This document shows, in pieces, positions 9,001-12,000 of a stretch of DNA of 28,791 nucleotides (position 1 is its first letter; each line of letters starts with the position of its first letter). Location: the IMG/VR virus record IMGVR_UViG_2534682161_000017, positions 1 to 28,791 of that record; one strand, given 5' to 3'. The position numbers were made by a program. The DNA is from a virus (Duplodnaviria > Heunggongvirae > Uroviricota > Caudoviricetes).

Positions 9001-12000
9001 CTTGTCAGTTTCTGTTGATGCATAATCGCTGAAGTCTTTCAGGATTTGTTCGCAGTCAACCGATGGAGATTTCTGGTTGGTATTTTCTGGTGATGGTTTG
9101 TTATCTGATGCTGGGATTGCCCATCCCGGCAGCGATGGAGGGAGCCAGTAAAATCCTGTTCCATCCTTCAGTTTTGCCCTGTGCCACCCCTGCTTTTTAT
9201 CGGGAGATGTTTGTGCGAAACCTTCCTCAAGGTTATACAGATACCGACCGATTCCCCACTGAACGGCAGCGCGCTTCATTGCACCGGAACGACCACCTTT
9301 GACGGCTTCTACCTGCGTGTTTTCAGCAGCATCCCATTTGGTTACCCATTCGGAATCAATCTTTATTGATATGCCGCATTCAACGCCGCCGTTGTTGGGA
9401 ATATCGCGGTATTCATTGCGCCATCCTGCTTTGCCGCAAACATCGTCCAGGCGTTTCATGATTGCCCGGTTCGTGACATAAGCCAGCACCATAGCCCACA
9501 CTTTGCCATCGCGTGTTTTACCGCTTTGCTGTATTCGCCATTCGATATCTTCAGGGCTGAATGGCTCATCGAATTTATTCAAATCCATAATTCACCTCAG
9601 AATGGACACGGCCCAAGGAAATAACGCTGATTTAATACTTCGACTCGAGACAAATTAAGGCATACCCGCATTCCTTCGCGGTCGCCATTATGGCGATACC
9701 AGAGAGCTTTCTGCGTGTACATGCGTCTCTGTAACTTGCTCTCCTTCACGGTGGTTGCAAGTGACATGAATATCTCCTTCGTTACCGATTAATTCTTTCA
9801 TCTGACGAATGAATTCTTCGTCTGACCAGTTATCTGTAAAACTCATTTCCTGCGATACCACGGAATGTTGATAGCTGATTTCATCGCTTTATTTGCTTCA
9901 AGCCACATTTTGGAATCACCAATAAATCTGGCTATTACTGCTTTGTTCTGTGCAGCACGAAGCATATGGTGATTGATGGCTATTTCATTGCGCATAATAG
10001 GACCTCAACTCTTTTCCATCCGTCACGTAATTTACGGGTGATTCGTTCAAGTAAAGATTCATTTAGTTGGAAGGCACCCATGCGAGCGCCTCCCGCGATT
10101 GCGTAAATCATGGGTGGTTCCTTATGTTGGTTTTATTAGTAGGTTATTTTTGTTGCGAATACTTCGCCTTTTACGATGGCTGTTATGATATTTTTAGCAA
10201 CATCTTCTGATGCGCCAACCTTGATAAGGTCAGCAAGTATTTTGTTATTTACTTCTTTCCGGTGAGCTTTATCCTTTGCTCTGTGCTCTTCTTCGTCCTT
10301 GATTCTTTTTTCTTCTGCGATTCTGGCTTGCTCTTTTGCTTCAGCCTCGCGACGGATTCGTTCAGCCTCCTCCTGTGCTTTTCTGCGTTCTGCTTCAATT
10401 GCTGCCTGCTTTTCTCTTTCAGCTCGTTCTGCTGCCTCTTTTGCTTCGCGCTGTGCTCGTTGCTCGGCCTCAATGCGTTCACGCTCTGCACGTTCCGCTG
10501 CGGCCTTAGCTTCTGCTTCTCGCCTTGCGGCTGCTTCAATTTCGGCTTTTGCCTTTGCTTCGGCTTCTGCTCTTGCTTTCTCTTCAGCTTCTCTTTTTAA
10601 GCGTTCTTCATGCTCTCGCTTTTCCTGCTCAGCTTTGAGTCTTGCCTCTTCTCTTTGGCGGTCAAATTCGCGATCCATCAAAATCGCTATTTCATGGTCA
10701 GACTCAATTTGCTTTGCGAGAGCTTCAGCTGCTGCCTTAGCTTCTTCTTCGGCTTTAATCCGCGCCTGTTCTTCCTCATAATCAGTAAGAGGCTGGCGTG
10801 CCTTGGCTTTCAGCTCATCAAGGCGATCGCGCACTGTCTTGCGGTTGGCATCAATTAGCTTTGGAATTTCCTTCAGTTCAGCAACAAGGTCTTTGCCAAG
10901 ACCATCGAGATATGTTTTCGTCTGCGCAACTTTATACGCCAGAGAAGCGATCTCCTTTCTGCCCTTTGCCGTTGTGATATCAGGCACAAAGGACATAACT
11001 TCACGTTCAACCTTTTGAAGGATTTCTTCAATCTGGTCGGCAGACTGAAATACAGTCATTGCATTTGCTTTTTCAATAACAACTAAATCTGTTACTTCAC
11101 TCATATATCCTCCATCAAAAAAATTGCCCTCACACTGGAGGGCAAAGAAGATTTCCAATAATCAGAACAAGTCGGCTCCTGTTTAGTTACGAGCGACATT
11201 GCTCCGTGTATTCACTCGTTGGAATGAATACACAGTGCTTACTCGTACTAATAAAATACCCAATTTTCTGTTTCTTGGTTGTGCCCAAAGTTATATTCAA
11301 TATCTGGTGTTGATGTATCAATATTCTTCATCCCATCAACAAGAGTTGATACAACAGCCAAATCTTGTTTGATTCTCATTAAATGGTATTTCTTCCGGCG
11401 CAATAAACTCTCAATGGCAAGTTTCTTCGTTGGGAATGCAAAAGATCTTTCTGCATTTTTTGCTACTTTCTTAATTGCATATCTATTTCTCCTTTGTTTC
11501 CATTCCTGTAACCACTGATTTGGTGCTGGTTTAAAATTAACAATCCAATGCGCAGGAACCAACCATGCATAATGCTCTGTCTGATGAAAAGCTATATATT
11601 GAAGTGCTAATATTTTGATTCCATCTTCTTCAACTGTCGCCTGGAATCTCCAGAAAACAGGCATTCCCTCATGTTCAGTTTCTGATTCAGGAAAAGGTAC
11701 GCTCCATGATATTGTCATATCTCACCTCAATCGTAATAAGCTGGAATTGATTTTCCGCGTTGCTTCTGGCGGCCTGAGCATGTCACACCCATTTCACTCC
11801 GTGGCTTTCGGTAGTAAATACGGTTCTGTTTACGCTCGACTTCTTCTACCTTCTTGCAGCGAAGGCTTCCGAGTGATGCTGCTTTATCTGCTCTGACGCA
11901 ACCAGAGAGCTTTAGCGCAATCTTTCGCGCCAGTCGCTGTTCTTGCATTGCCTGTTCACGTTGAGCCTGCCTGCGTGCTCTGCGGCGATTTCTGGCGTTA

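Follow-up and report, generated by a model that had tools for sequence, protein, structure and literature searches.

Which proteins are encoded by four tiny, overlapping open reading frames (ORFs) at 9597-10111 of a Caudoviricetes virus record (IMG/VR IMGVR_UViG_2534682161_000017), and are all of them host-takeover peptides, as an earlier note on this DNA had proposed? The window analysed here is the whole stretch of 28,791 nucleotides (nt), and all coordinates refer to it. Our answer, to which we attach a probability of about 85%, is that the interval represents part of the leftward early operon (PL, N-antiterminated) of a P22-like lambdoid phage, namely the segment cIII-kil-gp30-gp29 between gene 33 and the recombination genes.

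When the sequence was read directly, the four ORFs of 43, 50, 52 and 56 amino acids (aa) were all present as previously described; they are consecutive, lie on the minus strand and together span exactly 9597-10111. The 43-aa ORF (cIII; 9980-10111, ATG to TAG) is followed by the 50-aa ORF (kil; 9843-9995, ATG to TGA), the start of which lies 16 nt within the 3' end of cIII, so that these two ORFs overlap by 16 nt. The 52-aa ORF (gp30; 9688-9846) begins on the kil stop with a 4-nt ATGA overlap; its length is counted from the ATG, and an upstream GTG at 9861, present in the ORF listing, would lengthen it to 57 aa. The 56-aa ORF (gp29; 9597-9767, ATG to TGA) starts inside gp30, and the 3' end of gp30 and the 5' end of gp29 thus share the 80-nt out-of-frame overlap (9688-9767, minus strand) that had been reported for two of the ORFs. 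Within it, the 56-aa ORF is read in the +1 frame with respect to the 52-aa ORF.

Shine-Dalgarno (SD) sites or ATGA overlaps had been claimed for these ORFs, and this description was borne out. We computed the anti-SD duplex energy upstream of each start, the same-strand background having a mean of -2.1 kcal/mol with 7.7% of positions at or below -6. The values were -6.2 kcal/mol for cIII (start at 10111), -6.6 kcal/mol for kil (9995) and -8.8 kcal/mol, the strongest of the four, for gp29 (9767), whose SD sequence AAGGAG (9774-9779, minus strand) is embedded in the gp30 codons N-E-G-D. Upstream of the gp30 start (9846) the energy was only -2.8 kcal/mol, and this start therefore relies on the ATGA junction with kil. 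In the operon that we propose, a single transcript would serve all four cistrons, whose stops and starts interlock in a chain: the ribosome-binding site (RBS) and start of kil lie inside the 3' end of cIII, gp30 begins on the kil stop, and gp29 has its own strong AAGGAG within gp30 and ends on a stop that overlaps the SD of the annealing-protein gene. No terminator was found inside 9597-10111, nor any promoter consensus except for one weak 9/12 promoter-like match, and no Rfam elements were found in 8800-11500.

The region 9400-10300 has 99.3% nucleotide identity to Shigella phage Sf6 (AF547987 / NC_005344), and the four ORFs map base-for-base to Sf6 genes 32, 31, 30 and 29 (43, 50, 52 and 56 aa). 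Lengths, order and overlaps are the same, and gp29 is 100% identical, while gp30 differs by one residue (98.1% identity). In the Sf6 record, gene 32 is labelled cIII-like, gene 31 kil-like, gene 30 similar to HK97 gp42.1 and gene 29 similar to HK97 gp42. All four genes are already annotated in Sf6, and also in HK97, HK022 and CUS-3, and the finding is not new. None of the four ORFs gave a match among the NCBIfam and PADLOC profiles.

cIII and Kil

The kil/cIII position assigned to this cluster in the earlier note is confirmed by the first two ORFs themselves, which pass the Pfam cutoffs for Lambda_CIII and Lambda_Kil. The 43-aa protein scores 56 bits against Lambda_CIII (PF02061; cutoff 25.7) over residues 2-36, matches phrog_550 with 74 bits, and has an identity of 69% to lambda cIII and of 72% to P22 C3 (BLASTP). 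It resembles both proteins in the N-terminal AIAG motif, in the essential amphipathic helix ESLLERITRKLRDGWKR, including the R32 equivalent, and in the position of its gene upstream of kil. The stretch ESLLERITRKLRDGWKR is identical to that of lambda cIII, where it is contained in a 24-residue region that is both essential and sufficient for FtsH inhibition (PMC1838920). On the other hand, the protein is 43 aa long instead of 54 or 52 aa, and in place of their C-terminus it has ...VEVLLCAMK, a stretch whose codons run over the kil start and which also occurs in HK022-type cIII.

Selection was assessed by counting synonymous (S) and non-synonymous (N) variants in viral contigs. A species-genome scan with gp29 had given only 6 near-identical loci, and a first viral-contig scan gave 80 loci that were all 100% identical in gp29, a sample biased for a selection test; the sample was therefore re-drawn with a DNA probe in the gp30 N-terminus, giving 118 viral-contig loci. 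In this sample the Sf6-type cIII variants were 6S/0N (P=1.5e-4). On the strength of the profile and BLASTP matches the 43-aa product is cIII, in agreement with its RefSeq product name, 'protease FtsH-inhibitory lysogeny factor CIII'. By analogy with the lambda protein, which inhibits FtsH (PMC1838920), it is predicted to be a competitive FtsH inhibitor that would stabilise CII and thereby favour lysogeny.

The lambda/P22-type and HK022-type cIII alleles are dissimilar except for their last codons (...LCAMK and the stop), which lie over the kil RBS and start (9980-9995, minus strand). Since only these last codons are shared, a mosaic recombination joint is placed at the kil start.

The 50-aa protein scores 71.4 bits against Lambda_Kil (PF06301; cutoff 27.6), covering the full profile (1-31), and also matches phrog_2055. 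Its identity to lambda Kil is just 57% (16 of 28 residues across IA.FIGD.KM, BLASTP), and it has a longer N-terminus. The FIGD nevertheless aligns with G19-D20 of lambda Kil, the core of which is a helix-turn-helix (PMC11762379), and this core is kept here together with IA.FIGD.KM, the G-D turn and the same operon position. The kil variants were 19S/12N versus 20% synonymous expected (P=7e-7), with P=0.7-0.8 in the off-frames. Judged by its sequence, the 50-aa product is Kil. Lambda Kil acts as a ZipA-dependent inhibitor of FtsZ (PMC3961180, PMC11762379), and its counterpart here is, by analogy, a predicted FtsZ-ring inhibitor, i.e., a helix-turn-helix peptide that would block Z-ring assembly.

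gp30 and the 80-nt overlap

gp30 is an acidic peptide (charge about -8) with a match to phrog_2123 (140 bits) and a conserved N-terminal helix, WSDEEFIRQMKELIG. Its first ~21 residues, MSFTDNWSDEEFIRQMKELIG, recur after different upstream genes and with three different tails, namely the 52-aa Sf6 type, the 56-aa HK022 type and a 35-aa acidic type. In a gapless 250-nt alignment to Enterobacter phage vB_Ecl_MII_001, the ratio of non-synonymous to synonymous substitution rates (dN/dS) of gp30 codons 2-26 was 0.31 in the gp30 frame versus 1.2-1.5 in the off-frames, and the overlapped codons 27-52 gave a dN/dS of 1.6 in the gp30 frame. The viral contigs agree with this: inside the 80-nt overlap, variants are 2S/19N in the gp30 frame (P=0.97) and 13S/8N in the gp29 frame (P=5e-5). 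The overlap is thus real and constrained in the gp29 frame alone. It is not statistically remarkable: 32-39% of synonymous recodings of gp29 leave gp30 open for at least 52 codons, and a long overlap therefore needs no special explanation.

Conservation of each frame across relatives had been suggested as a check on the four ORFs; it is seen for cIII, kil, gp29 and the gp30 N-terminus, and breaks down in the overlapped gp30 tail. We conclude that gp30 is probably a genuine peptide, small and acidic, in which the N-terminal ~25 residues form the functional part, and that its C-terminal half is a run-on through the gp29 coding sequence with no detectable selection.

The contrast in dN/dS between the gp30 frame and the off-frames over the N-terminal 25 codons makes it rather unlikely that gp30 is not a functional protein at all, serving instead as a relay ORF that moves ribosomes from kil to gp29 and the recombinase gene, or arising as a by-product of the ATGA junction. 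A relay of this kind would suit the weak SD of gp30, its unselected tail with an ORF length expected by chance, and the HK620-type phages, which lack gp30 and couple kil directly to hkaM; it does not sit well with an N-terminal peptide that is kept with three tails and after different upstream genes, or with the tolerance of in-frame 21-nt duplications in gp30. These duplications were observed in the gp30 homologues P0036 and P0056, where EFIRQMK (21 nt) is present in two or three in-frame tandem copies in the conserved N-terminal helix.

If gp30 is a real peptide, its N-terminus is possibly Arf-like. P22 Arf, which aids recombination and is not essential for it (PMC12315714), is likewise small and acidic, has its gene between kil and that of the annealing protein, and has a (W/F)SDEEFI near the N-terminus in common with gp30, a weak similarity of 6/7 residues in BLASTP. 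The arrangement differs, as arf abuts erf in P22, whereas gp29 intervenes here. gp30 matches phrog_2123 and not the Arf family phrog_2445, to which its 35-aa relative has a weak match (E=0.062). One public record calls a gp30 homologue 'accessory recombination function protein'.

The 35-aa acidic ORF, MSFTDNWSDEEFIRQMNK(M/I)(L/I)N(Q/H)HKEQEKDDDSDSE, is carried by ~45 of the 118 probe-selected viral-contig loci. It is unannotated in SEN22 (L097 1501-1608) and HK140 (L098 1501-1608), in both of which it is ATGA-coupled to a cIII-like gene, and at its 3' end it overlaps with the beginning of a 103-aa gene (phrog_3486), which is located upstream of RecE/RecT-type genes. In Erwinia-type phages (L091 1355-1504; L225-L236), a different small ORF, ...ERLKDFDFIRALFEMACPGVKK, lies upstream of the gp29 homologue with an ATGA or a 23-nt overlap and has a D-x-(D/E)-F-I-R-x-(L/M) motif in common with gp30. 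A link of this ORF to gp30 or to Arf was considered and rejected, the hhalign results (E=0.02 and E=0.26) being unconvincing.

gp29 and its linkage to recombinase genes

gp29 is a basic peptide (charge about +5.6) that ends in FLGPCPF-COOH, matches phrog_1723 with 122.5 bits and has no match to a Pfam family. HkaM of phage HK620 (NP_112046) belongs to the same family (tblastn to hkaM, 32% identity over 100% of the query). The family alignment has invariant Ser, Ala, Glu and Phe residues and a strict C-terminal Pro-Phe, in the form ...(Y/F)FLGxxPF-COOH; the codons for P, F and the stop vary synonymously, which argues that the PF is conserved at the protein level. HkaM and HK97 Gp42 resemble gp29 in their ~32% identity over the full length, in the invariant residues, including the C-terminal PF, and in the location of their genes directly upstream of an annealing-protein gene. 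HkaM differs in that its gene comes immediately after kil, gp30 being absent, and lies ahead of the gene for Sak4 (a RecA-like ATPase), and HK97 Gp42 in that the native N-terminal 19 residues have been lost through two 1-nt insertions. The family is narrow, comprising 35 clusters at 90% identity, with only 21 matches at E<=1e-3 when 1.84 billion representatives were searched exhaustively with its gp29 profile (HMMER).

The AlphaFold2 model of gp29 is a helical hairpin (helices 7-27 and 30-51) with a predicted local distance difference test score (pLDDT) of 93. Compared with the PDB by Foldseek, this model retrieved generic helical hairpins alone, all at E>1, and a profile search of PDB sequences gave nothing meaningful. 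Outside the overlap, the gp29 variants were 21S/19N (P=9e-5), and the C-terminal half has a pN of 0.16 with saturated pS when compared with the Enterobacter phage homologue. Overall, gp29 is genuine: a helical hairpin of 56 aa that belongs to the HkaM family and is under strong selection. Two other candidate relationships were rejected: YdaE of the Rac prophage (56 aa, downstream of kilR) is zinc-binding and unrelated in sequence, and a beta-clamp-binding motif in NQRYFL would require a Q that is not conserved in the family.

The genomic context of this family points to recombination. Genes of the gp29 family end 7-12 nt upstream of a recombinase gene (~30 loci; downstream gene listed for 23), and the downstream products belong to three unrelated Pfam families, i.e., Rad52_Rad22 (here), ERF and AAA_24 (Sak4). 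In most loci examined the gp29-family stop codon overlaps the SD of the downstream recombinase gene. In the window, this gene (8881-9588, minus strand) encodes a Rad52/Rad22-family single-strand annealing protein (Sf6 gene 28, 'Erf-like'; Pfam PF04098, 89.8 bits); it is separated from gp29 by a gap of 8 nt, and its SD (GAGGTG) overlaps the gp29 stop (junction ttc tga ggtgaatt ATG). The upstream neighbours of gp29 homologues vary and can be gp30, an unrelated small ORF, or cIII without kil. As the upstream genes vary and the linkage persists without kil, gp29 is linked to the recombination module and not to kil. An exception to the spacing was observed in Salmonella phage S9-5 (L092 1679-2149), in which an HNH_3 homing-endonuclease gene lies between the gp29 homologue and erf and breaks the 7-12 nt interval.

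Judging from this conserved linkage, the recombination module appears to have gp29 as its first cistron. The protein may be an accessory factor, or an adaptor that would dock onto a partner common to the Rad52-like, Erf and Sak4 systems via its invariant C-terminal Pro-Phe. For gp30, too, with its Arf-like N-terminus, we propose that it may serve the recombination module as an accessory or adaptor.

The same linkage bears on the proposal that all four peptides, gp29 and gp30 included, are host-takeover effectors or toxins. For cIII and Kil the idea of host-takeover peptides agrees with what is known of their lambda homologues, while nothing supports a takeover or toxin role for gp29 and gp30. 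Although the genes for these two follow immediately on cIII and kil in one early operon, and the peptides are small and highly charged, gp29 is linked to the recombinase gene and keeps this linkage where kil is absent, and no matches to toxin or defence-related profiles were found. In addition, E. coli with a plasmid carrying hkaM alongside sak4, ssb and abc2 produced recombinants at high yield (PMC5928155), and this speaks against strong toxicity. We thus consider it improbable that the takeover role extends to all four.

A more far-reaching interpretation of gp29, which we also regard as a long shot, is that the recombination modules of enterobacterial lambdoid phages almost universally begin with gp29/HkaM, a role so far unrecognised, and that its ...FLGxxPF-COOH end would dock in the manner of the SSB C-terminal tip ...DIPF, with the (W/F)SDEEFI helix as a second portable recombination-accessory motif. 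The docking partner could then be, e.g., a host protein that interacts with SSB, or the SSB network of the phage, the (W/F)SDEEFI helix could be common to gp30, the 35-aa ORFs and P22 Arf, and the gp30 tail would be an example of run-on overprinting of gp29.

Several observations weigh against the assignment of the interval to a cIII-kil-gp30-gp29 segment with recombination-linked gp30 and gp29. Kil here ends in PWYRRK, a basic end that lacks the RS(S)K reported in almost every lambda Kil homologue; this RSK/RSSK C-terminal motif is not essential to the Pfam Lambda_Kil definition. gp30 has no match to the Pfam Arf family (PF17585) at E<=1, and its similarity to Arf in hhalign is weak (E=0.0028, 11% probability, 16 columns). 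HkaM has been described as an orphan, and the HK620 module including hkaM yielded recombinants when expressed in E. coli for recombineering; sak4 and ssb alone matched the whole module in that assay (PMC5928155), which therefore showed no role for HkaM. When a natural gp30-gp29 fusion (P0001) was modelled with AlphaFold2, the gp30 helix was not placed against gp29 with confidence, and the N-terminal part, at a pLDDT of 57-66, was uninformative. Finally, HK97 tolerates a frameshift that removes the N-terminal 19 residues of gp29 and the gp30 tail. In this phage, two 1-nt insertions in the overlap fuse the gp30 frame to the gp29 frame, giving Gp42.1 (83 aa), and a T-to-G change makes an in-frame ATG behind the same SD, giving Gp42. 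The first ~19 residues of gp29 and the gp30 tail are therefore dispensable in at least one viable phage. Frame-disrupting variation in relatives, which had been named as evidence that the ORFs are not under selection, is thus found in part, in the HK97 insertions that fuse gp30 to gp29 and in the unselected gp30 tail.

HK97 encodes this 83-aa fusion, and several 82-aa gp30-gp29 fusions with different junctions are present in protein databases; it is nevertheless very hard to credit that the overlap serves a fusion made by programmed +1 or -2 ribosomal frameshifting, with Gp42.1 as its hard-wired version. The junctions are scattered and stand beside truncated frameshift products, a pattern to be expected if single nucleotides had been deleted at random or misread in sequencing. 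Moreover, gp29 can rely on a strong SD and an ATG of its own, we identified no slippery site, and the overlap is absent from the HK620 and Erwinia-type arrangements.

Mosaicism, neighbouring genes and annotation

When related contigs are compared, their homology breaks off at gene borders, namely at the starts of kil and gp30 and at the stop of gp29; gp30 and gp29 travel together as one module. Beyond the near-identical region the window differs from Sf6 in being another mosaic, with no phage record covering more than 49% of its first 25 kb. Taken in its entirety, the window is a P22-like phage or prophage of mosaic make-up. The 515 nt of the interval are carried at 100% identity by the E. coli chromosome MFDS1019527, and the interval is matched, at least in part, in 2181 of 5426 complete E. 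coli genomes.

On the other side of the segment from the annealing-protein gene lies gene 33 (10136-11104, minus strand; Sf6 annotation), a Glu/Ala/Lys-rich protein of 322 aa counted from the ATG at 11104, which matches phrog_1376 and phrog_21365 and had no Pfam match in the profile search. The ORF listing extends it to a TTG at 11158. The annotation pipeline PGAP names its homologue 'cell envelope biogenesis protein TolA', a label that probably reflects compositional similarity. Upstream of gene 33, a terminator-like hairpin with a T-run (11124-11145, minus strand) corresponds to tL2A in the Sf6 annotation.

Annotation of the segment itself is uneven. In the RefSeq E. coli chromosome with the 100% identical 515 nt, PGAP annotates cIII, kil and gp30 and omits gp29 (L239 1545-1715), the ORF with the strongest selection signal; in the record of IME10 and in many Stx-phage records both gp29 and gp30 are left unannotated. 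Both phrog_1723 and phrog_2123 are labelled 'recombinase', a label that RefSeq phage records copy and for which no experimental basis was found. It probably goes back to HK620 hkaM, which was called 'arf' on account of its position.

cIII and Kil are textbook families, and the discovery value of the locus is small. Its practical residue is gp29, the better-conserved member of the overlapping pair, which current pipelines drop. The HkaM/gp29 family is tightly linked to three unrelated types of recombinase, and a defined role for gp29/HkaM would fill a gap in the lambdoid recombination modules that are widely used for recombineering.

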